A DNA stretch of 55,426 nucleotides, filler included, from Squatina squatina (Eukaryota), in the NCBI GenBank assembly GCA_031763465.1. It is 3 parts of 3 records of this genome, joined end to end, with 100 filler letters (N's around TTAATTAATTAA, not from the genome) between each part and the next. Parts side by side here need not be neighbours in the genome. Positions count along the whole stretch, not along the records: positions 1 to 26,420 come from JARFOE010000080.1; 2 more parts are not named here. One strand, given 5' to 3'. The notes beneath the pieces were generated by a model. The model did not search any database, was not told the DNA's origin, and worked only from the letters and a program-made list of their open reading frames with translations. Shown here piece by piece: positions 850-50,157 of this stretch. The position numbers and the translations under genes are program-made. Numbering within the stretch: the stretch's first letter is position 1; each line of letters opens with the position of its first letter.

Positions 850-1309
850 GCCCACGTAGGTAAAATGAAGCGGGAGCACAGGGAACGGGAGGCCGGGCTA
901 GCAGAAGATCGGGGCACGTAGTGCAGAGGAACGGTTAATGTGAGGCCCAGGGAGCCAGGAGCCGAGCACTGAGAAGCAGCAGAGTGGGAAGTGAGAGGCC
1001 TGGGGAGACAGCGACCAGCAGCCGAGGAGCAGGGGAGCGAGAAGACTGAGGCNNNNNNNNNNNNNNNNNNNNNNNNNNNNNNNNNNNNNNNNNNNNNNNN
1101 NNNNNNNNNNNNNNNNNNNNNNNNNNNNNNNNNNNNNNNNNNNNNNNNNNNNGTTGACTGGCTCTAGTCCACAGATGACGAAAGCTGCTTATCCTCTTGG
1201 TTGCCATGGAGTTGAATTTGAGCAGTACTGAGGCTGCTAGTGGGGAAAATCAGCATCAGGCAGCTGCAGTGGTCTGCAGGAAGAAAACAGGAACAAGATC
1301 GTGGCAGAC

Positions 1310-2274
1310 ATGGACTTGCATTTTGATTGTAATGATATTTCAGCTTCTGAACAGCAATCCGGCAAGATAAGTAAGACAGCATTTAAATTATTTGGGAGGA
1401 GAAAGTCAGGGGGCACCATGCCTAGTATTTTTGGTGTGAAAAACAAAGGGGATGGGAAAAGCTCCTTGAAAATGGGGCTTGTTAGAAGCAAAACGCACGA
1501 TGGAATTGCTGATATGGGACTGGAAGTGAGCAACAAGGAAGAATCTTTGAGTAATTATCAACTGGACACTGATTCCAGTACAAAAATAGTCAGCAGTATG
1601 AGTTTTGCTTCTGGTGGTTGTGGACCTATTGCTAAGTCTCACAGTTTTTTTTCTTTACTAAAAAGGAATAGTAAATTAGAAAATGGCAAGGGTGAGTCAG
1701 TACATTCAAACTCTGAACAGGTGAAAGAGAAGAGTTGCAACAGACAAAAGAAAGGACTAAAAGGGTTGTTCAGCAGCATGAGATGGCATAGAAAGGACAA
1801 AATCAGTAAAGAGGAAAAGGCTGAGTACCTGGAAATCCATGGCACTATTACATTGCCTAGTTCTTTGACTGCCAGCTTGGAATGTGTTAAAGAAGAGACA
1901 CAGAAATCTTGCTCTGAACTTGAAAGTGCTGCAGTGGAAATGCAAAGCAAGTTATCCTGTGAAATGCAGATTGATAACGAGAGCGCCTCCACTGAGGAAT
2001 CTGAACAAGCAAATAGTGGGAAGTCCCTTCCAGAATTATGTAAAGATTTGGAGAAAGCTGCCATTGACAGCCAATCTTTGGACCAACATTCTAATGTCAA
2101 GGCATTAGAACAGCTGGAGGAAAAACAGGATGAAACTTTAACTGATGTGAGGCAGGGTGTACAAGAAGAAAGTGCTTCTGTAACTGGATCCAAATCTCGC
2201 AACACTCCTGGAACTGCAACACCCAGTGCACCCAATAATGATCCACCCTCGGAACAATCAATTGATCGAATTTG
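1310..2274 (+). CDS. AMER2: APC membrane recruitment protein 2, 5' part of the large coding exon (truncated by gap)
   Basis: ATG at 1310; MDLHFDC..SGKISKTAFKLFGRRKSGGTMPSIFGVKNKGDGKSS..GLVRSKTHDG, KSHSFFSLLK, KKGLKGLFSSMRWHRKDK, SLTASLECVKEE, PPSEQSIDRI match recalled vertebrate AMER2. Confidence 0.93.
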
Positions 2275-2651
2275 NNNNNNNNNNNNNNNNNNNNNNNNNN
2301 NNNNNNNNNNNNNNNNNNNNNNNNNNNNNNNNNNNNNNNNNNNNNNNNNNNNNNNNNNNNNNNNNNNNNNNNNNATTTCCCCGGAGGTATTCTTTTTATT
2401 CTCTTTTATTTGTGAGAGAACCCACCCTTTCAGTTTCAACTATGAATTTTGTTCTTGTAATTGCTCAAGCTGTTTATTATTTCCATATGCACATCCAGGG
2501 ATGTGCATCCCCGCTCTGCCCAGTCCTGGGTAGGGAAGAATTTCAGGGGCCCTGGTGCTTGTTACAACCTGCCATGAGCTGGGGGATCCCATGCACCCCT
2601 CATCACAGCCTGGAGACCCACCACAGGGCAGGGCAGCCACACACGTGTACT

Positions 2652-3007
2652 GGAGGAGAGGAGATGGCAAGCCCGGATGAAGTTGACGATGAATATCTGC
2701 AAGAATTCTGGGACACACCACCTCCAACAGCTGAGCCTCTTAAAGACAAACAAGAACAGATTTCAGCTGACCAAACATCATGGACAGCTTCAGAAGATAC
2801 AACTTGTCTTGATGAGGCAGCAGACAGTACAGTAGTCAAGCAGCTTACTCTGAATGATATTTCCATAAGTAAGAATGACAAAGAAGACCCAACAACAACT
2901 ACAAGTGATCAACAAGAATGTGTCCCAAATAGTGATGAGGGATATTGGGACTCCACAACCCCTGGACCTGATGACCTATATCCTAGGGTTTTGAAAGAGG
3001 TGGCTAT
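2652..3007 (+). CDS. AMER2: AMER2 coding exon, middle part (truncated by gap)
   Basis: GGEEMASPDEVDDEYLQEFWD and VPNSDEGYWDSTTPGP are conserved AMER-family motifs; the C-terminus presumably lies in the 3008-3767 gap. Confidence 0.9.
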
Positions 3008-15286: not shown

Positions 15287-16175
15287 TTCTTTCAAAAAAC
15301 TGAAGTCCTCAGTTTTTCAAGGAATTCAAGCCAGAGAAAACTCTGAGGTTATAAATGTGGAAAATTTTGAAAATGTGCAAAAACATGTGCCAAATGGCCA
15401 TGCTGTGCACATGCAGAACAGGTATTAATACACGGGCACTTTACAGGATTTGTGTAGCTCTGTGGAGGACTTTGCTTCAGATTGCTCAGAAACAGAAGAT
15501 GTTGATGAAGCCTTTTTGCGCCACACCCACCGATCACGGAGCATTAGACGTGCTTACAGGGTTGGACGGATAAATTTATTGGATTGTGATAAATCCCCAA
15601 TTCAAGAGGACTCGACCAGGGTTGTGTCCCTTGGAGCCCAAGAATCAAACATTGGTTCAATAGTAACCAACTGTGAAAACCACAAAGCTATCTACCGGAG
15701 AAGCAAAAGCACTGACAATTTAAGCTTTTTCAAGAAAAGTTCATTTAAAAGGAAATCAACCTCCAACCTCACAGAGTTAAAAGTAACCAATGAAAATGAA
15801 AGACTACAACGGACAGTAAGTGCTTCATCAGCAGACTCTGAAAAAGTCAATGGCAATTCTGAAAGGCAATCTAAACGCTGGAGGAGCCTGATCAGAGCTA
15901 AAGATTTTGACCGAATGCTAAGGTTAGTGAATAACGTTGCAGATGTTGCAAGGAGGAGAGAGAGCCCATCAAAGGAAAATTCACCTTTACATGAACACAG
16001 AAACGGAGCTCGGCCTAACAGCAGACTACATGATGATTATTCTCGAAGAGTTTCTACCGGTGCTGACACTGAAAGACACAGATTAGCCTCACCCAACTGG
16101 AACCAATCAACGTCCTATCCTGCAACCCCCAGCCCATTCACCCTCACAAACACTCAGACTGTTACTATGCACCTG
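15287..16175 (+). CDS. SPATA13: SPATA13/Asef2 long-isoform large N-terminal exon (both ends in gaps; in-frame TAA at 15426-15428)
   Basis: SFKKLKSSV.QGIQ, THRSRSIRRAY, YRRSKSTDNLSFFKKSSFKRKSTSNL, KRWRSLIRAKDFDR, SRLHDDYSRRVS match the recalled SPATA13 long isoform. Confidence 0.88.
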
Positions 16176-16653
16176 NNNNNNNNNNNNNNNNNNNNNNNNN
16201 NNNNNNNNNNNNNNNNNNNNNNNNNNNNNNNNNNNNNNNNNNNNNNNNNNNNNNNNNNNNNNNNNNNNNNNNNNNAGTACACAGTTGGCTTGGGTCTGCC
16301 TGTATTGGCTCTAGTCTGCCTGCAACGCATGTCATCAACATTTTTAAATTACCAGATTTTAAAAGCTATTCAAAATCAGCAATGTTATATCTGTGCGCCG
16401 AAGCAGATTTAGACGATATGTGGTGGATCCTGTGATGCACATTTTCTCAGATCTGTAAATCTTAGTCTTTTTTTTTTGTGCAAGTGTCTGTCCTTGCATA
16501 TATCAGCAGTTGGACACTGATATGTTTGTACAACCAAAAATATTGTTTTTAAATTGCTATTGTTACGCTGATGTGTGGACAATCTAGAGTTTATAACTCT
16601 AGGAAGATGTAATGCTAATAAAGTTGATGACACTCAGTGTTCACATTTGAAAG

Positions 16654-17028
16654 GTTTCTTCTGAAGACCAGTGGAGGAAACCGTTACCTTCCCAGGAAGA
16701 AGAAAAGACAGATACAAAAAAGGTTGGACAAAGAAGGTGGAACTCCGGGAAAGGCAGGCAGCGACAACGACCCCTTTCAGACTATGGTCAGTTTGCTAGC
16801 AGGAAGTTCTCTATCCCGGAGAATGGTGTTCCTATTCAACCTCAAGAAATGGACCTTGCCGAGAATGAAGACACAATTGAGGCCTCTCGTGTTGATTCCC
16901 AGTCACAGAAATGTGCCACTGTTCAGCACCATAGACACCGAAAAAGAAGACCAATCTCTGTAATTGGTGGGGTCAGTATCTATGGGACTAATCAGTCTGA
17001 GGAAATGGAAGACCTTCTTACAGTACAA
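16654..17028 (+). CDS. SPATA13: SPATA13 exon preceding the APC-binding region
   Basis: tttgaaag acceptor and gtaaga donor; ..RRWNSG..RPLSDYGQFASRKFSIPE..RKRRPISVIGGVSIYGTNQSEEMEDLLTVQ. Confidence 0.9.
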
Positions 17029-17373
17029 GTAAGATGACTCTCTTATGCTACCTCATCTGCACCAAAATCAAACTTTTCTTCTTTGCCTGCCTCTTCACTT
17101 TATCTTTGGTTGAAAATTTTGCTTCCATTCAAGAGGCTGTAGTATGGAATGTGGGCTATTTTCTGTCCCCCTTCACTCTAATTCAGTCATTAGTGTACTT
17201 GCAAATACTCTTCCCCCTTTAGTACATTTTTTTGCCAATAATAGCTTGCCTAAATATATTTGCTTTTCTGAGANNNNNNNNNNNNNNNNNNNNNNNNNNN
17301 NNNNNNNNNNNNNNNNNNNNNNNNNNNNNNNNNNNNNNNNNNNNNNNNNNNNNNNNNNNNNNNNNNNNNNNNN

Positions 17374-17468
17374 GAGAAGTCATCCGAGTACTTGATGCCT
17401 CCAACAAGGAATGGTGGTGGGGCATGATTGACGACAAGGAAGCCTGGTTTCCTGCCAGCTTTGTTCGA
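17374..17468 (+). CDS. SPATA13: SPATA13 SH3-domain exon (5' end in gap)
   Basis: [31 protein letters not shown] followed by a gtatgt donor. Confidence 0.9.
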
Positions 17469-19412
17469 GTATGTTTTTCAGTAGTGTATGAAGATGGATT
17501 AACTTTCTCAGACAAGTTGACAATTTTATTTGCGAAACCTTACTTTTAACTTGAGATGAAGTCTCACTTCCTTCCACTCCCCAACCCATTTCCTGGTCCC
17601 TCTGAAATATACATACACTGGTTGAGAGGGTAAGTGAGCAACTTCTTCCTTTGCCACTCTGATCCAATTGCAGGCACACACATGATTTGTTGCAGTTTGC
17701 ATTTAGGGTGAAAGCCTAGCACTTTGCAGCTCTTGCACTTTCCCGCTGCAGCATGGCTAAGATCAAGAACTTCATTGTAGGAGATCATGGATACAAACCC
17801 ATATCCCACTAATCCATGCCACAGTGTGTTGATGACTTTTAGTTATAAGCAAAGTTTTAGTTGAATAATATTTCCTTTGTGATACATAATTTCCCATCAT
17901 TCAATCACAGTTATCTTCACTTTAACAGTCAATTGTGTGAAGCTTATTATTAAAAAGCAGAATAGCGTAAAATGTTATTTACAGTTTAACCATTAAATTA
18001 TTTAAACTAAATTCAACCTTTCTGTACATGTAGTCCATGGGGTTTTGCTCAATAGGAATGCAGATTGGCTAATCGGGTATGGAAGTCAATGTGCCCAACT
18101 TGTGACACACCAAATTTTTCAACTATTGATGCAGGAGTAGATTTCACAATTTTGGTTTTGTCTTGTGCTAAACAGTACGTGTCCAGCAAAATTACAAGTA
18201 GAAGATGGAAATTGAACTCTGCATGTGTGACCACATGATGAATAGGATATGTACCAGAAGTGACAATAGGAACACTAAATTAAGTCTTCTTTAAATAACT
18301 GTTGTTCTCTGAAAACATTTTCAATACGGAACAGTATATTACAATAGTTTGCTAATAGAATGAATTCTGTAGTCTCAGTTACTCATTGAATACCTTCTAT
18401 TTGTCCTACATTTCTGTTCTTAGACTAATCACCAATATGGTATCTCCACTCATGNNNNNNNNNNNNNNNNNNNNNNNNNNNNNNNNNNNNNNNNNNNNNN
18501 NNNNNNNNNNNNNNNNNNNNNNNNNNNNNNNNNNNNNNNNNNNNNNNNNNNNNNTATTATGCAAGTTATGGTGGTTCTTGATCAACCACTAAATGATGTA
18601 GCACTGCTACCGTGAAGTATTAGTGCTCTGTTTCACACTCCACACAGGGAAGTTTCCTGATTTTACAAATAAAGTTCCACTAACCAGCAACACGGGCATA
18701 CGCAGTAGGTCTTTATTTTCTGAGGGAATCCACCATTTTAAAAATGGCAATTACAGCTATAGCACAAATGGAAACAATTGGTGGTGCTGCATTTGCATTT
18801 GTTTTATGCCAGTTTTTACTTTGGGGCACAGGCAAATGAGCTCCGTAAGAAATGTTGCTGTAAGTTCCCGTCGGAATGATCGCCGCAGAAAAAGGCGTAA
18901 ATATTGGTAATTTCTGCGTAAGTCGGATGCAACAAATTCTGGAACCATCGTACTTACTGATATAAATTCCCACAGTTGGTAAGATCACATCTCCAAGTGA
19001 TTATGTTAGTACTATCAATTGTTAATTGCTACATAAAGTGTAAATGTGAGTTAGCTTTACACAAACAAGCACACTTCATGTTCCATACGTTTTAAGTGCA
19101 ATGCATACAGAATGTGCAATACTTGTCTTTGGGTTTTTATTTAAGAAATTCTTGAAATCTGTCTTCAAGTTTCTTTACAAATTGTTTCCCTTGGTTGCTT
19201 TTCTCTTCTCATTCTCTATACTTCTAATAAATATTTCAAATTCAGTTTGGCGAAACTAATTTTGTTATAACAGAGTAACTTTCCACCCAACTGGATTGAT
19301 TTATTGCTGGACCTCTGGTTGTAAATTGTATTTAATTGAAATCCATGAACCTCTGCTAAAGCAACAGCTGAACAGTGACAGAGATTAACCAAATCTTATT
19401 GCCATTCCACAG

Positions 19413-19542
19413 TGATTACAAAAACATCAGTGCTGCATACGAGGCCATGAAAAATGTAGCACGTCTGATTAACGAACGCAAAAGACGATTAGAAAGTATA
19501 GACAAGATCGCTCAGTGGCAAGTGTCCATTGTAAATTGGGAG
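19413..19542 (+). CDS. SPATA13: SPATA13 exon, end of DH (RhoGEF) domain
   Basis: ccacag acceptor and gtgcgt donor; [43 protein letters not shown]. Confidence 0.92.
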
Positions 19543-20665
19543 GTGCGTTTTTCATTTCTGACCTGTAATTAGACCTGTTTTGCTTTATCTAAATCTTTGA
19601 CATTTCTATTAGTTTGATGTATTCAACTTGGTCTGAGTAGGAATGATTTATTTTCCACTTTTAATCGCGCATGTGCGGATGCCAGAAGTTGCTATCCGAT
19701 TTACTCCTTAACGGTGGGCGCTGGTAGATTCACAGTTACTTGACTGCAAAACTTGGGCTTGTGTGTTTGCTCTTCATGTTACCATAGCCTATCAATTAGG
19801 CTCTTTTCTGCATATTTAAAGCAGTAGCTAGTTGTGCAAACAGTGGTTGGCAGGAGAGGAGGAGAAAGAAAGGGCATCAAGACGCATACAGAAGGAGATT
19901 CCAGAATGAACACTGCTGTTTTGGCAAGCGAGGTCGCTCAGCAACTAAGCACTGAGAGTTGGTGTTATTTACATCAAAACCTCATCGAAGTGCATTGCCC
20001 TAGAAAAGGTGGTGGGGCAAGTATCTCTGTTACAATCTTGTATAGTACATATACAGATTCTCTGTTTCTCTTTGTCTGCACTACGCCACCCAGGGATGTA
20101 AAAATGCAGTGCTGGAGTAGACTGTCTGACGGTTCCAGTGTCAAACCTAAAAATACATCAACATTAGCACAGAGTTTGTGCCTTTTCATCAAGCAAGGAA
20201 ACTCTATTCCCAAACCATTGCAATGTTTCATAGTACTGTGACACTTGGACACCTTGGCTCAACACGAACATTGTAGATTTATTAAAATCAAGATTGAGAA
20301 GTTAATATAGACAGACTTGGATTAACATAAATGACTTTAATGGGAATCTCTCTGACAGGAAAGGAATGGCACTTGTGGAAGTAACTAAAATTCTACAAAT
20401 GTGAGTGAAAAACCTGCTCAGTTAGTGCATTGAAATCCTGCAGTACCTGATTACTACCAGTAGAGTGAGCCTTATTAGCTCATTGAAAGCCTCAGGTGGC
20501 CTCAACCAGTACTACAATTTTGAAATAAATGCACTGAAGACTTCATTGTTTGAAAAGTGTCAAATCCTGACCTCCTGCTTACTCATCTTTCTATGTTGAA
20601 CGGATAACTCATTATGTTGTTGGAATGGCTTTATATATCAAGTCATTTATCTGTATATTTTTCAG

Positions 20666-21038
20666 GGGCAAGATGTTTTAACAAGGAGTTCAGAATTGAT
20701 CCACTCTGGAGAGTTGACCAAAATCTCATGCCAAGGAAAGAGCCAGCAGAGGACTTTTTTCCTGTTTGACCATCAATTGTTCTTCTGTAAAAAGGATTTG
20801 TTGAGACGAGATATGTTGTATTACAAAGGCTACATTGACATGGATGAGATAAAAGCCCTGGACATAGAGGATGGTAAAGATACGGATTTTACCATTAATG
20901 TAAAAAATGCCTTCAAACTGAGAAGTAAAACAACAGAGGAAGTCTACCTATTTTGTGCCAAAAAGCCAGAAGACAAACAGCGATGGCTGCAAGCATGTAT
21001 AGACGAAAGAAAAAGGGTAGAAGACGACAAAGAAATGG
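20666..21038 (+). CDS. SPATA13: SPATA13 PH-domain exon
   Basis: ttttcag acceptor and gtaagt donor; [55 protein letters not shown]. Confidence 0.93.
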
Positions 21039-21261
21039 GTAAGTTTGATTTCTGAACATTGCTTAAGAATAAATAGGTGCAGCAATTGATTTCCGACATT
21101 CCTGAGAGACCAGCCGTTATTCAAGNNNNNNNNNNNNNNNNNNNNNNNNNNNNNNNNNNNNNNNNNNNNNNNNNNNNNNNNNNNNNNNNNNNNNNNNNNN
21201 NNNNNNNNNNNNNNNNNNNNNNNNNAACAATTAACTTTCTTTTGCATTAATCTTTTTTCAG

Positions 21262-21336
21262 GATTTGAAATTTCAGAAAACCAGAAGAAACAAGCTATGT
21301 TAAATGCCAAAAAATCCAGGCATGGAAAGATTAAGG
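21262..21336 (+). CDS. SPATA13: SPATA13 penultimate coding exon
   Basis: ttttttcag acceptor and gtaagt donor; (G)FEISENQKKQAMLNAKKSRHGKIK; phases compatible with flanking exons. Confidence 0.9.
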
Positions 21337-22603
21337 GTAAGTAAGGCGATATAGATATTCTGAAAGCTCACTAAGTTTTAGGAACTGTGGTTTCCATTGT
21401 GTAATACAGTAAAATGTTAAGACTTTTTAAAAAAAAAAAAAGGATAATAAGTATCTCGGACTAGTTTTGATTTCCTATGCATGTCAGAGAGGAATATACT
21501 TTTTTTATCCTCCTCATTTGGTTTTTATCTTTTTTTTTACTTCTCCTGAGATTACATGGTGGGTGGGGAGTGTACTTATTGTGACTCATAACATTACAAC
21601 CAGTGATGGATGAACCAGTAGCTTATTTCCTGCCTGTCATCTTCATATATTCGCAGTATATAGGATTTGGCAAACTGCAGCTTATCCATAGCAGCAAAAA
21701 TGGTATTAATTTTCCACTGCGTAACATGTTCAGATAAATGTGATAATACACGGAATGTTATATTTTGAAAGAAAGCACTAGTTTTATGTTGTTTGAGTTA
21801 AAATGTAATAAAACCCTAGCAAGTAACTTTTGTTAATATCTCAAAGTAAGGAGCATAATGTGACCTGAAGCCCTGTACATTTTTAGGGGGTGGGGAGGTG
21901 GAGAATGGTCGCGGCCAGTACTTTGCAGTAACTGAATAAATCAAATTCCTTTTTTACTACATAGGATTCCAGGATGTTCCCATGAAAATGAAAACCATTG
22001 TGATATCATGAGATCATGTTTGGTTCTGCAAAGTCACCAGTGTCTTTTCAATAGATATAATAATATGTCAGAATGCCTATTTGTGGCATGAATATATAAT
22101 ACAGATCAATGAGATATTGAGCTAATTCTACTCAAGGAAGATGTTATGGCAACTTATGACTTTGTCACTTGCTTACTGCATGTTCTCTATATATTCACAG
22201 GCTAAATTAGAAAAGTAAGCTGAAGCTTTGGGCTAATGCTTTGGACACTCTTTGGCAGTTCAGAATTCTTCACTTTGGTTGGAATGGGGTAGGAAGACAG
22301 AGGAAATCCTATTCTCTCTGACATGATGTAGAAGTAGAATAGCTTTGGCAATGGTGGTCACTAAACAAAGCACAGCTCTGTTCACAACACTATTCTAGTT
22401 GAAATGAATGACCTTGATGCAGAAGTAAGGTGACCAAAAGCACACTAACACAGAGGGAGTCTGAATGAGAGTCGATTGTCAGTGTATGCATGAGTGCAAT
22501 TATAGTAACTACATACTTTTCTTGATGCTCATTAGATGATGAGTCTGATGGTAAATGGTTAATTAATAGCAATATATGATTCTCTGTATTTTTACTGTTG
22601 TAG

Positions 22604-22785
22604 GGGTGAATTATAGTGGATTTTCTATTCCTCCTCCGCATCAGTCTCTTCATCCAATCCACCAACGACACATCACTGTGCCGACCAGCATTCCTCAGCA
22701 ACAAGTTTTTGCATTGGCTGAACCCAAACGCAAACCATCTCCCTTCTGGCACAGCTTTACCAAGTTGACCCCCTTTAAAAAATGA
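22604..22785 (+). CDS. SPATA13: SPATA13 terminal coding exon
   Basis: ttgtag acceptor; [54 protein letters not shown]. Confidence 0.93.
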
Positions 22786-25232: not shown

Positions 25233-25573
25233 NNNNNNNNNNNNNNNNNNNNNNNNNNNNNNNNNNNNNNNNNNNNNNNNNNNNNNNNNNNNNNNNNNNN
25301 NNNNNNNNNNNNNNNNNNNNNNNNNNNNNNNNCAATGTTGAACATAGCAGTAAGAAAAGACAGAATAAGTGCATGCACCACACAGGCCAAATTCTGGAAT
25401 TATTATTGCATGAGACACACACTTCAGACAGTGTATAATCAGTTCAAATCTCAGGTTTGATTAATCCCATAATTTAGAAGTCAAATCTCTATTGGTCAGC
25501 ACTTCTCCAACCTATAACTTTAATGATAGTTGTTTCTTTCTGGTAACTGTGCAGTAACCAGTCTCAATCTTAC

Positions 25574-25745
25574 CATCTGGTACCCATACTGTATGACTTT
25601 TTCAGTGTACTCCTCCAGTGTGAAGTCTCCAAGATCTGGTTTGTTGTGCTCCTCAAGAATATACTCATCGACTGTACTGTAGTCTTCTTCAAGGGATTCT
25701 TTCTTTTTACCACTGCAGCATCTGTTTATCAGCTGCTTTAACCAC
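25574..25745 (-). CDS. Internal exon of a divergent anoctamin (TMEM16) family gene, TM6-TM7 loop into TM7
   Basis: Minus strand ttttttag | 172-nt open exon | gtaag, encoding WLKQLINRCCSGKKKESLEEDYSTVDEYILEEHNKPDLGDFTLEEYTEKVIQYGYQM; EYxExxIQ[FY]G[FY] is the anoctamin TM7 Ca2+-site signature. Confidence 0.82.
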
Positions 25746-26420
25746 CTAAAAAATAAACAGTGTCCAAAGGTAAAATGTTAAAATAATAACGAATGATAAA
25801 ATATTATCCCACAATGTTGTTCTTTACAGTTTTTGTTTACTAAGAATGGATGATACTTTGGTTCTTTTTTAGATGTTATAACATGTGCAGTATTATTATA
25901 CAAAGCCTTAATACACCTGCATCAAAATTCTCTATCTGCTATTTTTACTGAGATATTAACCCATTTAATATTAACAGATAGACCCATCCATTAAAGTAGC
26001 AGATAGAAGAATGCCATATCAATGTGTTAAGCACTCACGATTATAACCAAGAGCAGTATCTAGGCTTGCATGGACACAAACACAGTGACTCTACCACTCC
26101 TTCCTCTCAAAGTTCTCATTGACCACTAGTAGACTCATTAGCAGTGCCTGTTTCTCCAGTTTGGGCCAGTTTGTTAAGTGTTTGCCAATTGAAACATTGA
26201 TATTGGCATTATGAATGAATTTGAAGATTAGATTAACATTCAATCAAACAATTTACTTCAAATGTATATTAAATCTCATTAAGTTCCTAGCACCACTTGC
26301 AGAAGAAATGTAAAGCGAAACGTAGAAACACAGAAAATAGGAGCAGGAGTAGGCCATTCGGCCCTTCGAGCCTGCTACGCCATTCAATATGATTATGGCT
26401 GTCGACTAGTTCAGTACCCT

Positions 26421-26520
26421 NNNNNNNNNNNNNNNNNNNNNNNNNNNNNNNNNNNNNNNNNNNNTTAATTAATTAANNNNNNNNNNNNNNNNNNNNNNNN
26501 NNNNNNNNNNNNNNNNNNNN
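26421..26520. other. Artificial concatenation linker (N-TTAATTAATTAA-N)
   Basis: Palindromic all-frame-stop 12-mer at 26465-26476 centred in Ns. Confidence 0.95.
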
Positions 26521-29500: not shown

Positions 29501-29863
29501 ACAAAAGAAAGAGGTAGATCTATGTAAATATTGGTTAGGCTGCAGTGAGACTATTAGATTAGAAATTGGTCTTTGTCACTTTACAGAGTGGGGGCATCGG
29601 TGCTATGCATTGAATGGCCTCCATCTGTGTCATATGATTTTAAGATTTTATGTGGATGGAAAAAATTAAGGGGTGAAGGCAACTGTTGTGTCAGGAAAAC
29701 CTCAAGCCAAAAAAATGGTATTTTGCAGAGGTCTTTGGATATTCAGATCATTTTGAGTCTTCACCTTAGCACTAAAATGTACATGTACATGTATGACATG
29801 TTGCTTCTGAGCATGAGAAGTAAATTAGTAATTAATTTTCCTCCCTTTTTTTCCCCCCTTTAG

Positions 29864-29974
29864 ATTACCCTAGTTGCACCCAAATGGAGTGTTCAAATGG
29901 AGCCTGTTACAACTCTAGCCAACATTGTGATGGATTGCTGAACTGCAGGGATGGAACAGATGAAAGCAATTGCA
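29864..29974 (+). CDS. LRP2: LRP2/megalin LDL-receptor class A repeat exon
   Basis: tttag acceptor and gtatgt donor, phase 1-1; YPSCTQMECSNGACYNSSQHCDGLLNCRDGTDESNC resembles megalin repeat 4. Not in the ORF track. Confidence 0.88.
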
Positions 29975-30923
29975 GTATGTTCTGCTTTTCTGATGTTTAG
30001 ATCCTAGCTGCCTGAATATAATAAATCACCTGTTAGACACTGATATACAGACATACTGAAACCCAGACCATGTCTGAAACAATTTAATATGTCCTCTGTA
30101 GTTCTGCTCAGAGGCAGCAAACTTAATCAGAAGAATTTCTTACCTAGTCATGGAGACTGGTAAAGTAGTGATTATCACGGGGTGGATCAATGGAAATGAT
30201 AATTGGGTAGTTTGTATAATTAATAGCTGATCCCTTAGGTCAGTTTTATGCCCAGCTGTTTGGTACTCAACTTGTGGAATGCAGAAGAGCTATCATTTCT
30301 ATCACAATGGAAATCACACATAAATGACATACCAATGTGTTCAACATGAATTCTGCTATTGTGTCATGGATTTGCAACAAACAAATATTTGGCTTAACCA
30401 ATCTGTGTTGCTGTTTATCCTCCACATGAACAGTAGCCCTTATCTTGTGTGCACACTCTGTTCCCATATCCTTTTATTATCTTTTTGTTTAAACACTTCT
30501 CTTACCCATTCCTCAATATTGACATGGTCTCTGCTTCAAGCACTTCCACAACCACACAGAAAAAATGTAAAGATGGTTACCTAATCCAACAAAAAAAGTG
30601 TTGTTGACACCTTCTTTCAAAAAATCTTTGTGCAACAATTGTGATTTTTTTACTCTTCATTTACCTGATGTCAGAGGGGGTTTTAGCTATTTTATCTGGA
30701 TGAACATTTGCATTATTCCATCTAAGAAGGGGTGGGAGTATTCACTGGCATCATTACCTGAAGCTTGATAGTCACACCATAATTTGTTAACAGTCCCACA
30801 ATGTTGCTAAACAAAATTCTGATTTGTGTACAAATACAAATAGCATTTGAGTTGCTAAAGTGGCAAAAAATTAATTCTGGAAGTAAGGATACAGTATTAT
30901 GGCAAATTTTGGTCTTAACACTC

Positions 30924-30992
30924 CTGTGAAGCGCCTTGGGACATTTTTACTATGTTAGAGATGCTATATAAATACGTTGTTGTTGTTGTTGT
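30924..30992 (+). repeat. L2-type SINE/LINE 3' tail with (GTT)n
   Basis: tgtgaagcgccttgggac...gctatataaatac followed by GTT repeats; a reverse relative lies at ~40081-40137. Confidence 0.6.
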
Positions 30993-31757
30993 TACAAACC
31001 ATTCAGCATTTGCCCCTCATAAGTACTGATGAAGTAAATTCTTGACGTAAAGAATTTCTTTTTCAGTTTTCTCTCCTCTCCTAAAGCTANNNNNNNNNNA
31101 CGGTCATTCTTCACTTGCGACAGTGACATGAGACAGTGTGTGCTAGTGGGTTTTTTAACTATGGATCCGGTCCCCACCTGACAGCCTCACATGCAGACTT
31201 TCCAGCAGGGGCTACTGGACAGTATTCAGGAGTGGGAACCCAGCTGATTATTCCCATTCACAGCGCAGGATGAATAAGCCAATTGTATCTCCCCAGTTAT
31301 TAAAATCATAGAATGGCTACAGCACGGAAGACGGCCTGTTGAGCCCATTACAACTCTCTNNNNNNNNNNNNNNNNNNNNNNNNNNNNNNNNNNNNNNNNN
31401 NNNNNNGTGATTGAGTTTGCCTCCATCACTCTTTAGGGCAGTGTATTCCAGATCCTAACCACTTGCTGCATAAAAAAGCTTTTTCTAATGTCGCCTTTGG
31501 TTATTTTGCCAATCACCTTAAATCTGTATCTTCTGGTTTTTGACCCTTCTGCCAATGGGAAGGGTTAGACCAGCTAACTCAGCATAGACTGGGGCCTTGC
31601 CTGACCAAATGGCTTAAGACCACACTGGGTGGTGCACTTATCCATCAAGCCATAGATAGTAGAACTGTATAATTTACCAACTGAAATTTTCAGAAAAGAA
31701 TGTGAGTGCTGTGCTTCTTCTCCCCATTTCCCTCATCTCTTTCCCAACCCTTTGCAG

Positions 31758-31871
31758 CTCGGAGATGTAGCAGTACTCAGTTTCAATGTCCCAGTACAGA
31801 ATGCATCCCACAGATATTTGTATGTGACCACGATGATGACTGTGGAGATGGAAGTGATGAGCAAAAATGTG
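31758..31871 (+). CDS. LRP2: LRP2 LDLa repeat exon
   Basis: ttgcag acceptor and gtaatg donor; [37 protein letters not shown]. Confidence 0.9.
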
Positions 31872-32393
31872 GTAATGTATTCCTTTTAACTTTCTGGAAC
31901 AGTTATTTCATTCCATCATACCATTTAAAGTAATTTAGAAGTCTTCAGCACAAACCTGTTGGGTATTTGGTACAAAGTTAAAAAAAAGGTTAAAAACTTC
32001 TGAAAGGTTGCTTGGATGCCCCACAATTTCAGCACTTGGAAAACCTATAATTTAATTTGGGGCNNNNNNNNNNNNNNNNNNNNNNNNNNNNNNNNNNNNN
32101 NNNNNNNNNNNNNNNNNNNNNNNNNNNNNNNNNNNNNNNNNNNNNNNNNNNNNNNNNNNNNNNGTGCTACATAACCAATCATGAGGAAATATGAGAGAGC
32201 AGGCTGGGTTGACGGTCTCTTCCCTGTATGTCTATCCTGGTGGGGAGGTGCCTGTCTCTACTTGGTGAGTCAGTATCTTGCAACAATACAGACTGAGAGA
32301 TACGGCAAATTACACTTGCAGTGAATTTCAGCATATTTTTAGTCCTCTGCAATTGTGAGTCATAATGGAGTTCAAAACTAGGGTCATACATAT

Positions 32394-32680
32394 AAGGTAG
32401 TCACTAATAAATCCAATAAGGATTTCAGAAGAAACTTCTATACCCAAAGAATGGTTAGAATGTGAAGCTGGCTAACCCACAGAGTAGTTGTGGTGAATAC
32501 CATAGATGCATTTAAGGGGAAACTAGATAAGTACATAAGGGAGAAAGGAATACAAAGATATGAAGACGATGTGAGGTGAAGCAAGGTAGGAGGGGGCTTG
32601 TGATGAGCATAAACTCCAGCATGGATCTGTTGGGCCGAATGGCCTGTTTCTGTGCTGTAAATTCTCTGTAGTTTATGTAT
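32394..32680 (+). mobile_element. CR1 LINE 3' end
   Basis: agaagaaacttctatacccaaagaatggttagaatgtg...ctgttgggccgaatggcctgtttctgtgctgtaaattct, a typical shark CR1 tail. Confidence 0.75.
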
Positions 32681-32921
32681 GTAATGAGTCAATGTAAATG
32701 TAAATTATTAGGTCAATTGAGTAAGGGACCTTGAATTGGGGCATATATTTATGGTTAGGTTATTTATAGTTGAAACACAGATAAGCAAAAAGTTATGTGG
32801 GAATAACATTTATAAAATTCTGTTTTGATCTAAAAATACATTCTAAAACTATTATAACATTTTAACATTTGAGCTATGATAACGCCTAATGATAGTGTGG
32901 TGATACTCTTGTATTTTGCAG

Positions 32922-33038
32922 TTTATCCAAGCTGCAAAGGAGATTATTTTACCTGCCCCAGTGGCTATTGCATTCATCAGAATTGGCTCTGCGATGGAGA
33001 TGATGACTGTGGAGATAATGCTGATGAAAGAGGATGTG
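32922..33038 (+). CDS. LRP2: LRP2 LDLa repeat exon
   Basis: ttttgcag acceptor and gtaaga donor; [38 protein letters not shown] resembles megalin repeat 6. Confidence 0.9.
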
Positions 33039-34322
33039 GTAAGAATGTGGGCAGTCAAGGAGTATATTAAAGTTTAAATGAGTAAGATTGGTAAACTGTT
33101 GAATGAGGATTACAGAATTTAACAAGCGTGCCCTAAACCGTGAATCACAGATTGAGCAATGTTTGTCGTGCCAGCGCAATGAGTTATCTTTCAGGTGTTT
33201 GGTTGACTGTATCATTGTTGCTTTCATGGAATCCATAGAAAATAACANNNNNNNNNNNNNNNNNNNNNNNNNNNNNNNNNNNNNNNNNNNNNNNNNNNNN
33301 NNNNNNNNNNNNNNNNNNNNNNNNNNNNNNNNNNNNNNNNNNNNNNNTTAAAACATTTTCCCACAGCAAATTTCTTTTGCCATCCATTAGGAGAGAAAGT
33401 GTGGAATTGATACTGTGGCACCAATAATATTTTGATGCTTTAAAATTGAGACACCTAACGCCAAAGGGCCTTTAAAAAAAATTTAAATATTACTTTAATC
33501 TGCAAATAAGAACTTTTTTTTGTACCATGTAACCTTTGATTCTCCTGAAGAATGTAAATAGCCTCGATATTTGGTTGAAAAAAACTATGTACTGTAATCA
33601 GATAAAAAGGGGAAAAGTGTGTTCAGATACTAATTAGCAACACAATCGGTTCACTGGTAACAAAATTCAGCCCCAATAAGTATTACTTAAGATACTGAAG
33701 AGAGACTGCAAGGCTATAAACTAATGTTGGTGGCTCACGTAAAGGTTTGCTTCAATTTTAGCTTTCCAACTTCAGTCTGTACCAACATCTGAATCCTACA
33801 ATTAGTTTGCGCTTGTGTAATTACTCTTATCATTATCCTCTCTGCAAACATTTGTCATCAATTATATCACATCTGGACCATCACCAGATTAAACTGCTCT
33901 TTGAAACATAAGAACAAGTGTTGAACTTGATCGATTACTAGTCACGCTGTTTTACCAGAACACTTTTTCTGCAAAAAATACAATATAGTGAAAGAAAGTA
34001 CAATTTTAATTGGTTTCATAATGCATACAATATTTTTAATGTTGTATGCTGCCTTCAAAAAGGCACTGTAATCATCAGTTTTGATTTTTCTTTTGATTTC
34101 AAATAAAATTTAAAAGTGAAATGAGCGACATCAGCTTGATTATGTATGTGTAATGATTATATATTGTTGAAATTAATGTCCGCTTTTAGGGTATGTGAAG
34201 CTGTGCCGTTACAGTCAGAAAGGAATACAAGTAAGTGCTGTAGTGGTAAAACTGACAAGTATCAAAACTTTGCTTTTCATTTTTGAAAATATAGAAAAAG
34301 AGCCTTAAATACAGAATACTAG

Positions 34323-35300
34323 CTTCTTTAGTCCTGGCAACGTCCTCGTAAATCTCTATACCCTCTCTAGTTCCTGTAATGTGGTGACCAGAACTGCACG
34401 CAGTACTGTAGCTGTGGCCTATCTAGTGTTTTATATAATTCTAGCATAACCTCTCCGCTCTTTTATTCTGTGCCTCGGCTAATAAAGGAAAGTATCCCGT
34501 ATGCTTAAGTATCCTGTATTCTTAACCACCTTATCTACCTGTCCTGCTACTTTCAGGGATCTGTGGACATGCACTCCAAGGTCCCCTCTGTTCCTCTACA
34601 TTTCTCAGTATCCTACCATTTATTGTGTATTCCCTTGTCTTGTTAGCCCTTCCCAAATACATTACCACACACTTCTCCTGATTGAATTTCATTCGCCACT
34701 TTCCTGCCCACTTGACCAGTCCATTGATATCTTTCTGCAGTCTACAGCTTTCTTCCTCACTATCAGCCACACAGCCAATTTCTGTATCAACTGCAAGCTT
34801 ATTAGTCATGCCCCTACATTGAAGTCGAAATCATTGATGTATACCACGAGAAGCAAGGGACTTAGTACTGAGCCCTGCGGAACCCCACTGGAGACAGCCT
34901 TCCAGTCACAAAAACACCCGTTGACCATTACCCTTTGCTTTCTGCCACAAAGCCAATTTTGGATCCAACTTGCCACTTTCCATTTTGGATTCCATGGGCT
35001 TTTACTTTTCTGACCAACCTGCCATGTGGGACCTTATCAAAAGCCTTGCTAAAATCCATGTAGACTACATCAAACGTGTTACCCTCATCAATCCTCCTTG
35101 TTACATCCTTAAAAAATTCAATCAAGTTAGTCAGACACGACCTTCCCTAAACAAATCCATGCTGACTATCCTTTAATCTGTGCCTTTCAAAATGACAATT
35201 AATACTGTACCTCAGAATTAAAAAAAAATAATTTGCCCACTACCGAGGTTAGGCTGACTGGTCTGTAATTACTCGGCCTATCCCTTTCTCCTTTTATAAA
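34323..35300 (-). mobile_element. CR1 LINE reverse transcriptase fragment
   Basis: PSNYRPVSLTSVVGK, DVVYMDFSKAFDKVPHGRL, RLQKDINGLVKWAGKWRMKFN; frameshifted. Confidence 0.88.
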
Positions 35301-35751
35301 CAATTGCAAATAATATAAAGATGAGCAAGTAAAGATTGGAATGTCATATAAATTCCAGTTAATGGGTTTTGAATTGATCAGATTATGCATGTCAAGGGAT
35401 TTTGCTATACTTTGATATTAATAACAAATATTCTTGTAATTTGAGAAGAGCGAGTGCTGTACACAAAACTGCCTAATGGAGGCTTCTGACCTCTCAGTAG
35501 GCAGAAATAATGAAATCTGTATTCACCACACAGTATTTTATACACTGGCATACAACTGTGCCAGAAGGAGGGGGATTTCTGCCACATATAATTAGAAATG
35601 GATTTCAGTAAACAGATTATGTATCACATGGAACCTCCTATGACAACCAGATGTTACAAGTAGGACTTGGTGCAAACTTCATGAGTTTTTTTGATTGCAT
35701 GCTTTCCCTGGCTCTATTTAGTCTCCCAGAGATCCAGGATCCTGTGTAATA

Positions 35752-35948
35752 GAAATAAAAACAGAAAATGCTGGAAATATTCAGCAGGTCAAGCAGCATC
35801 TGTGGAGAGAGAAACAGAGTTAGTTCAGGGTCATCGACCTAAAATGTTAACTCTGTTTCTCTCTCCACAAATGCTGCCTGACCTGCTGAGTATTTCCAGC
35901 ATTTTCTGTTTTTATTTCAGATTCCAGCATCTGCCGTATTTTGCTTTT
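35752..35948. repeat. Inverted duplication of a Penelope pseudo-LTR (71-bp arms)
   Basis: 35752-35822 and 35848-35918 are reverse complements with 3 mismatches; same sequence family as ~8730-8857. Confidence 0.85.
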
Positions 35949-35993
35949 GTAGCATTGGATGATTATTGAAAGCTTCAGTAGCACACCTTCACG

Positions 35994-36500
35994 TCAGACA
36001 GTGTTGCAGGCCGATGGCCAGTCTATGAAGGCAGCTCCAGTATTCAACTGCTTCTGGAACCCTGCCTCAGTGTTGGTAGAGAGTGCAAGGGCCTGGTCAG
36101 AGCAGCTTCTTCCCTCTCTGAAACCTGCCTGCTTGTTTGGGAGGGCGGCTTCTACAGCCAGTTTTATTTGGTTAAGGCCAAGCCATTCATCCAACTTGTA
36201 GACAGTAGAACGAACGATGATGGGGCGGTAGCTTTTGGGATTGTAGGCTGGTTTTCCTGCCTTTAGGATAGCAATGACTTTGGAATGGTACCAAACTTCT
36301 AGGATTATCCCAGTGTCAGGGATGTTGGAGGTGAGTTTGCCAAGCCCCATCTGTCCATTTGGGCCCTGGTTCTTGAGAAATTCTGGGTAGATGCCATCAA
36401 TCCTGGCGACCTTAGCAGACTTGGTGGCTGTCAGCACTGTGTTCACTTCTTCAGTAGTGATGGCCGATGAAAAGGTGGCTTTTTGTAGAGAGAGCTGTGT
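35994..36500 (-). mobile_element. Non-CR1 LINE RT fragment, probably Ingi/Vingi-like
   Basis: IDGIYPEFLKN, SKVIAILKAGKP..PKSYRPI, QAGFREGRSCSDQALAL, EAGFQKQLNTGAAFID; clearly an RT, clade assigned from memory. Confidence 0.7.
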
Positions 36501-37036
36501 TTGTTTTCGGTGGTAGTCGTTAGCTTTGAGTTTGCTCAATTATATGTGATGCTTATATAAGGCTGTTCATGTTTCATGGTATTTCAGCAGGTTTAACAAA
36601 ATCTACAGATGATTATATGGAAATGCCAATTTTAAATATGAAGAGCTGCAATACAAAAATTTAAAACCACATTTACAAGAATGCAGTTCTTGGAGTCTTC
36701 CAATATTGAATACTCTAAGGTTATTCGCTTAGCTGTAAAAATACAATCAAAAGTGGGAAAAGAGAGTTATAAAAATTATAAGATGCTTGTAAACCCTGTG
36801 TAATGAACTCGTCAAGTGAATTAAAACAGCAGAACTGTATTTTCTGGAATAACATCAATGGGAAATACATTACTAAAATGAACTATAATAAAACAATACA
36901 GTCTGTACAGTTAAGTAGATTCTTACAAGTTGGCAAATATTGCAGCATGTGTGTTATGAATAAAACTTTTGAGATATTTGAGGCACTGCAAATGCAGGGT
37001 ACATTACTTAATGTAAAATTATTTCCTGCCTTTTAG

Positions 37037-37206
37037 CTGGAATTGCATCCATTATCTTCTCAAATGGTCGTGATTTACTGATTGGTGATATTCATGGAAG
37101 GAATGTACGGATTCTTGTGCAGTCTCGCAATCGTGGCATTGCTGTTGGTGTGGATTTCCACTACTCTCTGGGCATGATCTTTTGGACGGACACCATTCAG
37201 AATAAG
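37037..37206 (+). CDS. LRP2: LRP2 exon, start of first YWTD beta-propeller
   Basis: ttttag acceptor and gtaggc donor; [56 protein letters not shown]. Not in the ORF track. Confidence 0.93.
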
Positions 37207-38421
37207 GTAGGCAACATTCCCAAAACTAGGCACTGAATCAATAACCTGGGGAAGATGGACTTGTGTTGAAAGCTCTTTAACACCATGCGTATTGTGTTTC
37301 TAACTTCTGATTTTCCACAGGTATTTTACTGCTGACAACCTGTTGCTAATCTGGTAATGCTTGCATTATTAAACTTTCTATATTCCAAAAAAACTGTGTT
37401 GTTTCACATGGAAGTTGATCAGGTGATGGTGAGTTCTTGTAGATAATTGCAAAGCACTGAAAAATTACCATCCTTACTCCCCAATACAACCCCTCATTCA
37501 CCCACCCACAGCTTGCAGGCTTGTTAAATTCTCTGCCATAGAGCATGAAGATGAATTCCTTACACAATACCACCTTTGACGAACAAGTGGCCAAAGCAAC
37601 TGTGGAACATTTAGCAATCCGAGGAAGAGATGCATTAGCTGTAGTGGGAGTGTAATGAGAGGGGTCTAGAACCAGGGGTCACCATCTCAGAATAAGGGGT
37701 AGGCCATTTAGGACTGAGATGAGGAGAAATTTCTTCACNNNNNNNNNNNNNNNNNNNNNNNNNNNNNNNNNNNNNNNNNNNNNNNNNNNNNNNNNNNNNN
37801 NNNNNNNNNNNNNNNNNNNNNNNNNNNNNNNNNNNNNNATTTGCTTGATGTGCCCGGAAATCTACAGCGTCCCGCTCCGAATCTACAGCGCCCGCTCCGA
37901 GTCTCCAACTCAGGGGGGGTCCAACTTGCAAGGTCGCGTGGATCGAGGACCTTTAGATAAGTACTTAGATATTTTTGCCATCGGAGGTCCCCGCACGCGG
38001 GAAGCCGCCGATCGCAAATTCAGCACCATTGTTTCATGATGTTGTTATTGAAAAAGGCGTGCTTGTACCATGTGTACCAGTGCATAGAATCATAGAATGG
38101 TTACGGCACAGAAGGAGGTCATTCGGACCGTCAAGCCTGTGATGGCTTTCTGCAAGAGCACTTCAGCAAGTCCCACTGCCCTGCCCTTTCACCGTAGCCC
38201 TGCAAATTCTTTCTTTCAGCTAGTTATTCAATTCCCTGTATAAGATTCCTCAATATATCTGTCTACTGCCTAATTATTACGTAACCTGTAATGTAACATA
38301 TATTCCGTATTGTCCCTGATATTAAACAGCGTGCAAAGATTGCACAACTTAATCTAAACAATTCTAAAGATTATTGAAAATGTTTTCAGAACCATTTTAC
38401 TTACCTTTCTTGTTTTATCAG

Positions 38422-38645
38422 CTATTCTCTGTAGATCTCACAGGCTCTAGAATCCAACAAATTTTAAATGTTTCCATTGACACGCCTGAAAACCTAGCTG
38501 TGGACTGGGTGAACAATAAGTTGTATGTGGTGGAGACCAGTATTAACCGAATTGAAGTTGTTGACCTGGATGGAAGTAACCGTATAACACTCATTGCAGA
38601 AAACCTGGGGAGCCCGCGAGGCATTGCTGTTGACCCGACTGTAGG
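38422..38645 (+). CDS. LRP2: LRP2 beta-propeller exon
   Basis: ttatcag acceptor and gtaaga donor; [49 protein letters not shown]. Confidence 0.93.
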
Positions 38646-38806
38646 GTAAGAGCTGAAATAATTATTAGGCTGGATTCTGGCTTTCTGAGCTCTGAACCAA
38701 TTTGTTGTTTACAAAGTGGTCTGTTGAAACTGAATTGCACATAATGTTAAAATCCTATTCCAAATGAAAGCAATGTACATATAAATCTGCAGTCTATAAG
38801 GTTGAA

Positions 38807-39712: not shown

Positions 39713-39812
39713 NNNNNNNNNNNNNNNNNNNNNNNNNNNNNNNNNNNNNNNNNNNNTTAATTAATTAANNNNNNNNNNNNNNNNNNNNNNNNNNNNNNNN
39801 NNNNNNNNNNNN
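39713..39812. other. Artificial concatenation linker (N-TTAATTAATTAA-N)
   Basis: Same 12-mer at 39757-39768 centred in Ns. Confidence 0.95.
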
Positions 39813-45459: not shown

Positions 45460-45706
45460 AAAATTAGCTGAAGGATTGAAGGCAGCACGTCATGGTGGAT
45501 GGCTGTTTTTCAGACTGGAGGATGGTGGACAGTGGTGTTCCCCAAGGGTCAGTGCTGGGACCACTGCTTTTTGTGAGATATGTAAATGACTTGGATATTG
45601 GAATACAGAGTAAAATTTCAAAATTTGCTGATGATACCAAACTTGGAGGTGTGGCAAACAGTGAGGATGATACCAATCGACTGCAACAGGACATAGATAG
45701 GTTAGC
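45460..45706 (+). mobile_element. CR1 LINE RT core fragment
   Basis: SGVPQGSVLGPLLFVRYVNDL..ISKFADDTKLGG. Confidence 0.9.
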
Positions 45707-46063
45707 NNNNNNNNNNNNNNNNNNNNNNNNNNNNNNNNNNNNNNNNNNNNNNNNNNNNNNNNNNNNNNNNNNNNNNNNNNNNNNNNNNNNNNNNNNNNNN
45801 NNNNNNCGAGATACTGTTACTGTGAAGCTTCTGGAGGAGCAGAGCATCTCGGACAGCAACTTCTTGGTATTCATGTTTAACTACGCATGTCCAGTCACCA
45901 GAGGCTGCTCTCCAATATACACTTTAATTATGGGGAGCGCTAATAGCCTCACCGTTGTTTTACCGCAAAACCCGGGCCATTGTACCGGTCTTTTAATTGT
46001 ATTTAAACAATGAAACAAAAGGATTTCAATGATAGTTTATTTTATTCTATTTAATTTCTTTAG

Positions 46064-46276
<213 letters not shown>

Positions 46277-49116: not shown

Positions 49117-50157
49117 CTAATTCTGGGGCAGAAGAGGTGAGAGGTCAGCAGGAATTCCAATCCATTGAGGTAAGAAAGCTGCCTCGTACTTGAATAATTT
49201 TAGAAATTCTGATTCAGGCAAAGTATAGTTAGTGAGGAAAATTGTCTCCCCACCAGCCAGGTAGCCAGCCCAGTAACCAAATGTCCCAATTGTCATTATC
49301 GTGTGATTACAATGAGCAAGGATAGAAAAGTCTTGAGCTACACTGGATTCTTTTGGGTCATCGAAAAAGAAAACATCACCTTTGGAATCATCAATGTTCT
49401 CCTTACACCAATCCATCCCATTACTTGTCACTGCAAAAACAACATCCTTGTATTTATTTCTGAAGTAAGCCATTGCTTTTTCTAAGTATTTCTTATCCGC
49501 TACGACTCCTTTCCAAACATTTGGCATGACATTTACGTAATCTCCTCTTCGGACATGAACACCAACATATGTCACATTCTTTCGCTCTCCCCTGATGCGT
49601 CTAAGGATTACATTTGTCTGTTCTGTAATAAAGTCATGAAAGGTGAACTCACGGAGGATTTCCTCTCGGATGTGATGATAGAAGGTCCAGGAACTTGGGT
49701 ATCCTGTGAGCTTAACATACTCTCCTGGAATACTGCGGTACTGATCGTCCATCCAGTCATGGAGATTATAATATTTCCACTGTATTCTTTCGATCACACT
49801 TTGATGGAGGGTTGGAAGGGAAATTTTGAAGATAGGGGACAGGTAATTGGCCATGGAAGGCAAAATGTATGCTGGATGACCATTCAATTTTGCCAATGCA
49901 TATAATGTTGCATACTCCCCCATCTGGTTGCCAAGTCGCCCAATAGAGTTAATTGTCCAAATTCCTTTTGAAGTAGTCTTCGCCCTTTCATTAAATGTGA
50001 TGGTTATTTTTCGAAGAAATTTGGCAGTTTTGCTACCATATCTTAGCTGATATTGGTACATTATGAAAACTATTGTCATTGAATAGAACACTATTAAGAA
50101 GAACAGTCTTTTCTTGCTTTGCCAAACACAATTTCTGCTCAAAAGTTTCATTTCCAT
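49117..50157 (-). CDS. Galactoside alpha-1,2-fucosyltransferase (GT11; FUT1/FUT2/SEC1 family), complete single coding exon, 346 aa
   Basis: N-terminal type II membrane anchor; [76 protein letters not shown]. Confidence 0.95.

Follow-up and report, generated by a model that had tools for sequence, protein, structure and literature searches.

The window, i.e. the whole stretch of DNA analysed here (55,426 nt, filler included, from Squatina squatina, assembly GCA_031763465.1), consists of 42 pieces with a median length of 1081 bp, separated by 41 N runs, and many of its gaps measure 100 N. Two gaps (26421-26520 and 39713-39812) are made of 44 N, then TTAATTAATTAA, then 44 N again, which is an artificial all-frame stop linker. 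Because of these stop-linker gaps and the many 100-N gaps, the window is to be regarded as a joined scaffold. Its features are collected in table 1.

Table 1. Features of the window, with positions counted along the whole stretch.
Feature	Position	Strand	Remarks
AMER-family gene (PF09422)	1241-2983	+	interrupted by N runs; upstream of RhoGEF
ASEF/collybistin-family RhoGEF	15429..22785	+	SH3 and PH exons (Pfam); stop 22783-22785
Ungapped 1088-bp piece bearing the anoctamin exon	25333..26420		bounded by N runs
Splice donor GTAAGA	25568..25573	-	from sequence
TMEM16L-type anoctamin internal coding exon, paralogue A	25574..25745 (read 25745..25574)	-	172 nt, ends in phase 0
E-Y-T-E-K, codons 45-49	25598..25612	-	both TM7 Ca2+-site glutamates and the lysine of the clade
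Splice acceptor, pyrimidine tract then AG	25746..25790	-	from sequence
High-copy short repeat	26317-26401		inside the exon-bearing piece
LDL-receptor-related gene exons	29836..38647	+	three LDLa exons, one YWTD exon (Pfam)
ABI-family HHR exon (PF07815)	46064-46276	+	
Alpha-1,2-fucosyltransferase ORF (PF01531)	49117-50196	-	intronless, 359 aa

The RhoGEF gene, among whose 44 ORFs no RhoGEF-domain exon was found, is taken to be SPATA13 by its C-terminus and its AMER neighbour. The latter is presumably AMER2, and the AMER-ASEF pairing resembles the human AMER1-ARHGEF9 and AMER3-ARHGEF4 pairs. Further along, the LDL-receptor-related gene has four Pfam-positive exons among 137 ORFs and is followed in window order by the ABI exon and the fucosyltransferase ORF, the latter possibly nested inside the ABI gene. 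We assume the receptor gene to be LRP2-like and the remaining block to resemble human 13q12; this gene may represent an additional megalin paralogue that mammals have lost. Decayed transposase-like fragments, presumably of Harbinger type, and reverse-transcriptase fragments were also observed, at about 53300-54500 (minus strand), 35994-36539 (minus) and 45480-45707 (plus).

As the scaffold is drawn, the anoctamin exon lies 2.8 kb beyond the RhoGEF stop codon and convergent with that gene, as claimed in an earlier sequence-only reading of this DNA. Three N runs intervene, so that this convergence is weaker than stated there; we consider it probable that the anoctamin gene truly adjoins SPATA13.

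The exon itself is the cleanly spliced, minus-strand, 172-nt unit that had been described. Its first base finishes an upstream codon and is followed by 57 stop-free codons ending ...EEYTEKVIQYGYQM, while a TTTAAC about 35 nt upstream of the exon appears branch-point-like. The product spans the cytoplasmic loop between TM6 and TM7 and runs to the middle of TM7, in which both glutamates of the E-x-x-E motif are kept, in agreement with the earlier claim; alignment to mouse ANO6 equates them with E667/E670 of TMEM16F and E702/E705 of TMEM16A. Among 5.8 billion proteins searched with phmmer, the exon peptide had 27 matches out of 37 candidates, all carrying PF04547 (best E=1.6e-19). Every one of the 26 matches that carry names is from a shark or ray, the closest being a sevengill-shark ‘anoctamin-7-like’ protein (79% identity). 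An HMM built from 35 vertebrate relatives gave the exon 82.3 bits; the runner-up among the window's 2725 six-frame pieces reached 2.9 bits, and nothing in the reversed window exceeded 3.2 bits. The PF04547 check advised in the sequence-only reading was less clear-cut on the 57-aa peptide, which is a weak match (E=0.014, 14.7 bits, below the cut-off of 28, with a phage-integrase model slightly above it), whereas full-length orthologues reach 393-410 bits against the same cut-off; a PDB search using the exon peptide alone returned no anoctamin match. That the anoctamin exon is real is virtually certain. The further exons that were also to be looked for did not appear above background within the window, either with tblastn (27 relatives) or with the HMM of 35 relatives.

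Four sequencing runs were compared with the window. Run X3 (organism B) carries an orthologous stretch of 25333-26012 at approximately 90% identity, with 59 differences and 10 gaps. Among the differences listed within the exon (at least 13) are nine amino-acid changes and three silent codons, without any stop; all those listed sit in the variable loop, where they give no signal of constraint. A second X3 match, of 79 nt over the exon 3' end, is possibly copy B of the gene (see below). Runs X20 and X21 and most of X1 match solely the short repeat of table 1, which explains why the shares found by the sequencing-run search were small; no RNA run was among those listed. The exon boundaries also recur elsewhere: in a bamboo shark and a clam, gene models that are truncated or read through stop at the upstream boundary, and for two rays and two invertebrate-type proteins the models have a break at the downstream one, at the donor codon. 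Because gene models break at both boundaries, the two flanking introns look old, and the pattern suggests that they are common to invertebrates.

The related elasmobranch proteins fall into two groups, A and B, which are 59-64% identical within one species. The exon scores 97 bits with copy A, at most 76 with copy B, a median of 46.6 with 136 invertebrate members of the clade described below, and at most 27 bits in the 40 matched proteins of a 44-protein canonical-type comparison set (mostly unnamed; FastTree support 0.34). By these scores, the exon is assigned to paralogue A; in an exon-only tree, whose sequence is too short for firm resolution of A versus B, its branch length (0.12) is similar to that of other A copies. 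The sequences that host A and B are equal in size in all eight species with both copies assigned in a single assembly (Pristiophorus came without sizes, and the S. torazame records come from sequences of differing size). Because of this equality, A and B likely share a chromosome, and a duplication on that chromosome would predate the shark-ray split. Two A gene models, those of Heptranchias and Heterodontus (P0002 and P0006), include spurious retroelement-derived exons, P0002 matching RVT_1. A 354-aa fragment, P0136, branches beside elasmobranch A and B and inside neither, and is a candidate chimaera orthologue or third copy. The Atlas model of the orthologue P0003 (pLDDT 0.68) matches an anoctamin cluster with a TM score of 0.74, the Atlas matches being at family level only.

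Full-length searches and trees place these proteins with those of invertebrates. A full-length member scores up to 546 bits with hemichordate, echinoderm, mollusc, coral, annelid, spider and comb-jelly proteins, against 266 bits with bird ANO7, 239 with bat ANO5 and, among solved anoctamins, 241 with ANO6, 173 with ANO1 and 156 with ANO10. An IQ-TREE analysis (38 of about 300 proteins, 403 columns, LG+G4) unites the vertebrate proteins with ctenophore, cnidarian, spiralian, chelicerate and ambulacrarian anoctamins in one clade with 100/100 support. The suggestion of a separate, invertebrate-like anoctamin lineage in cartilaginous fish is thus borne out, by the clade, by the searches and by the topology tests. 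The idea that the lineage was kept in cartilaginous fish applies to sharks and rays, with two copies, and proves too narrow, as paddlefish and reedfish hold it too. Indeed, a HMMER scan, with naming by further search, revealed a single member in paddlefish (a 48% relative), and the single reedfish member is its orthologue. Among the matches listed (the best 120 per search), those named within the clade include none from teleosts, lobe-finned fishes, tetrapods, lampreys, chimaeras or invertebrate chordates; the taxon searches were word-limited and some rows bore no names, which makes the absence of taxa soft.

Membership of known groups was tried with nine vertebrate rows: AU tests rejected joining them to ANO7 (p=2.6e-5), to ANO5 (p=5e-123) and to the ANO1-like group, ANO1/2 (p=1.4e-6), in trees from which ANO2, 3, 4, 6, 8, 9 and 10 were absent by name. 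The phylogenetic check that had been called for accordingly speaks against membership of three groups. Database names would instead make the gene a divergent paralogue of ANO7 or of another of ANO1-10, since 23 of the 27 exon matches are labelled anoctamin-7-like (two others are anoctamin-6-like, one is anoctamin-4-like and one is unnamed), and several human paralogues were outside the tree by name. Besides the AU result, this origin is opposed by an identity of 32% between the clade protein and bird ANO7 versus 45% with the hemichordate protein, and by a clade signature found in 34 of 35 vertebrate members and in none of the 44 canonical-type proteins. We find it scarcely credible, and hold with high confidence that the gene falls outside ANO1-10. 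Judged from these comparisons, the anoctamin-7-like label of the elasmobranch clade proteins is wrong. The lineage would then descend vertically from the first animals, with subsequent loss in the teleost and tetrapod lines. Transfer from a protostome into an early jawed vertebrate would be suggested by the free trees, which place the vertebrates beside protostomes and not ambulacrarians (97/95), and by the lack of any lamprey, tunicate or amphioxus member among the matches listed. However, a mixture-model tree sets the vertebrates as sister to all protostomes and inside no phylum (SH-aLRT 90), monophyly of the deuterostomes (vertebrates with ambulacrarians) is not rejected (AU p=0.12), and the truncated models suggest that both flanking introns are common to invertebrates; such a transfer appears highly improbable. 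It is distinctly improbable, too, that S. squatina holds only an orphan exon, left by a decayed gene or misplaced beside SPATA13 by scaffolding. A single exon was indeed found where a many-exon gene is expected, on a scaffold as fragmented as described above, and several of its loop residues differ from those common to X3 and the nearest sharks. Yet the frame and both splice sites are intact, the branch length is that of other A copies, and the SPATA13 and LRP neighbours are thinned likewise, so that the lone exon is no sign of decay. The remaining exons would sit in scaffold gaps or unplaced pieces, and the anoctamin gene is in all likelihood intact in this species.

A subfamily of this kind has already been published. 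Yuan, Zhu and Kadowaki (bioRxiv 10.1101/2022.04.22.489151) describe TMEM16L (ANO11) as invertebrate-specific and lost in vertebrates, from a vertebrate sample of 10 proteins from human and 12 from zebrafish. Our clade shares with TMEM16L, as described in the available text, the ctenophore-to-chelicerate range, both Pfam domains (PF04547 and PF16178, found together in 8/8 clade proteins scanned), the five Ca2+-site acids, the lack of the TM6 hinge glycine (present in 0/35 vertebrate members versus 40/44 canonical-type proteins) and the anthozoan methionine pair (both the hinge and the I551 site carry Met in 3/3 anthozoan proteins among those listed, other than that of Actinia). Moreover, all four species named there for recent L duplicates (Mnemiopsis, Macrostomum, Biomphalaria and Centruroides) have a clade member. 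It differs in being present in sharks, rays, paddlefish and reedfish, and the available text of Yuan et al. is silent on the loss of the S2 asparagines and on the two lysines seen here. Matched on these described features, the clade is very probably TMEM16L. The same authors' TMEM16M (ANO12) was rejected as a candidate: it is described as small, with an absent or partial dimerisation domain, a retained hinge glycine and no mollusc, deuterostome or arthropod members, which is not what the clade displays. The ANO11 of Himmel et al. 2023 (PMC9904763) is also a clade of unknown function that lies outside the mammalian groups and predates the cnidarian-bilaterian split; it can be likened to ours by description, its members being known only from that paper's figures.

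In the literature searched, most subscription journals being outside its reach, there was no report of the clade from a vertebrate, and the term TMEM16L was met only in Yuan et al.; the accessible parts of PMC5868767, PMC11993260 and PMC13739764 held nothing further on it. A whale-shark study (PMC8455134) lists, in its available portion, five small PF04547 orthogroups, of 2-6 taxa, in addition to seven large ones, and the small ones may already hold this clade unnamed. The novelty, as far as these sources extend, is therefore a TMEM16L-type member in vertebrates and not the subfamily itself. Nor is the gene hidden, as the sequence-only reading had it: clade genes are annotated in other sharks, but under wrong names (anoctamin-7-, -6-, -4-, -1- and -10-like).

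Residues of the Ca2+ site and gate, numbered from alignments to mouse ANO6 and ANO1, were counted over 171 clade members (35 vertebrate and 136 invertebrate, many of them isoforms or near-copies; 11 of 302 proteins had been removed because of gaps). In shark A, all B, paddlefish, reedfish and nearly all invertebrate proteins, the five acids are D/E/E/D/D, with Asp at the E654 position in 170/171 and at the E734 position in 167/171, the remainder being gaps. The three asparagines of TMEM16A are gone: the N650 position holds Lys or Arg in 170/171 members (the remainder a gap), the N651 position is hydrophobic (F/L), and the N730 position has T, I, V, L or F in most members, versus Asn in 43/44 canonical-type proteins. 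The lysine noticed from the start after the second TM7 glutamate is indeed present and is a clade signature; at this position, M706 of TMEM16A, Lys occurs in 170/171 members (the remainder a gap), including all 136 invertebrate members examined, and never in the 44 canonical-type proteins. TM6 lacks the hinge glycine and, as a rule, contains two prolines (K-P-x-P-K). All 35 vertebrate members have Ala, Val or Met at F518, Ser, Asn or Thr at Y563 and no Lys at K588. The loop pattern WE.DY.L, reported as lacking in the exon, is absent from all 35 as well, versus 31/44 canonical-type proteins with it, and the TM9-TM10 loop measures about 19 residues versus about 87 (by a pattern that caught 16/35 and 14/44 proteins, respectively). 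In copy B, neither glutamate is lost, and the pore position Q559/K588 is occupied by His in 15/15 proteins. Batoid A proteins (P0007, P0008, P0011, P0013, P0016 and P0030) have lost the second TM7 glutamate in 6/6 cases (to V, S, A or R) and retain the S1 acids despite the loss of this S2-only residue; in all six, the TM6 lysine after the hinge is replaced by Glu, as also in one shark protein.

According to Falzone et al. (PMC6028493), S1 comprises E654, E702, D738 and the shared E734, and S2 comprises E705 and three asparagines. Since the S1 acids stay while the three S2 asparagines go, S1 appears kept and S2 dismantled, and the glutamate loss in batoid A is consistent with an S2 that has ceased to bind Ca2+. 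In TMEM16A, E654D and E734D are each reported to raise the EC50 approximately 800-fold, to 0.8 mM (PMC4112547). As these E-to-D changes at the TM6 and TM8 positions cripple the TMEM16A response, S1 in the clade must be reshaped or weak, and a D/E/D/D S1 may bind Ca2+ poorly. Mouse TMEM16F/ANO6 (PDB 6P46 and others), a scramblase and channel activated by Ca2+ and the top solved match, has the same domain order and shares with the clade the TM7 and TM8 acids and a Gln-type residue at 559; its G615, N620, N621, N695, M671, F518 and Y563 are all replaced in the clade, and its E624 and E699 correspond to Asp. Yeast IST2 also has a lysine in the Ca2+ site, is described as scrambling without Ca2+, which this lysine replaces (PMC12618243), and offers a precedent for a side chain in place of the ion. 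It is no close relative (23 bits) and, unlike the clade, which keeps the acids and loses asparagines, it has the lysine in place of a TM7 glutamate and has lost three acids.

The reading towards which we incline, on sequence comparison, is that the gene is copy A of the elasmobranch pair in the likely TMEM16L/ANO11 clade and encodes a phospholipid scramblase that is gated by Ca2+ and where a lysine would take the place of the second Ca2+. S1 (E654, E702, E734 and D738, surviving as D/E/D/D) would bind one Ca2+; S2, without its three asparagines, would be filled by the TM6 basic side chain or the TM7 lysine, as with K443 of IST2; TM6, without its hinge glycine and usually with two prolines, would be locked into a kinked form; and the small TM4/TM5 gate residues would give a groove wide enough for lipid. 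The protein is accordingly described here as a predicted one-Ca2+ or pre-primed scramblase. The parts of this reading differ in strength. Scramblase activity is likely, a prediction made because of the small TM4/TM5 gate residues, the missing Lys at K588 and a gate that is wide in the anemone TMEM16L model already published (bioRxiv 10.1101/2022.04.22.489151), whereas the replacement of the second Ca2+ by lysine is predicted only tentatively. In its fullest form, which we deem unlikely, the reading would be that of an eleventh anoctamin lineage of early jawed vertebrates, a 700-million-year-class TMEM16L surviving in sharks, rays, paddlefish and bichirs and gated by one Ca2+ and a built-in lysine with a hinge-less TM6, batoid A having dropped an unused glutamate. 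The altered gating anticipated from the exon alone is thus real as far as gating residues go; the TM6 and TM8 changes bear on gating more directly than the TM7 lysine noticed there.

Two other functions can be envisaged for the same gene and clade. The scramblase could be constitutive, i.e. largely Ca2+-independent, with lysines and shortened acids locking TM6 open as in IST2. The pair of invariant basic residues in or next to the Ca2+ site, the absent hinge glycine, the reported stabilisation of the TMEM16F open state by G615A (PMC6414204), the effect of E-to-D changes in TMEM16A and the IST2 precedent all point this way; yet IST2 lost three of its five acids, while sharks, paddlefish, reedfish and almost all invertebrates keep five, which argues for a bound cation, and we rate full independence from Ca2+ as not very probable. 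A Ca2+-activated ion channel without scrambling is improbable as well: channel and scramblase functions are said to interchange easily in the TMEM16 family (PMC6028493), but the gate features on which the scramblase prediction is based, in all 35 vertebrate members and in the anemone model, run against it.

Whichever function applies, the shark, ray, paddlefish and reedfish members overturn the published statement, as worded in the available text, that TMEM16L was lost in vertebrates, and they expose a set of mis-named anoctamin genes in databases. A clade that extends from comb jellies to sharks and keeps the acids without the hinge glycine or the S2 asparagines constitutes a natural experiment on TMEM16 gating. 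Ray copy A is a further natural mutant, and what the two Ca2+ sites and the bending of TM6 contribute becomes directly testable in vertebrate proteins.

The known vertebrate holders of the clade are, we assume, all fishes with ampullary electroreceptors; this link is a correlation only, and anoctamin terms were found neither in a paddlefish lateral-line supplement nor in the text of a skate electroreceptor preprint. Among the invertebrate-type proteins, P0150 (821 aa, nematode-like) groups within the clade, has what we take to be a length similar to that of C. elegans ANOH-1, and may be that protein. ANOH-1 is described as promoting phosphatidylserine exposure on necrotic neurons (PMC4464654), nematodes are among the TMEM16L holders according to Yuan et al. 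(bioRxiv 10.1101/2022.04.22.489151), and the genetics of nematode ANOH-1 may attach to a defined subfamily.
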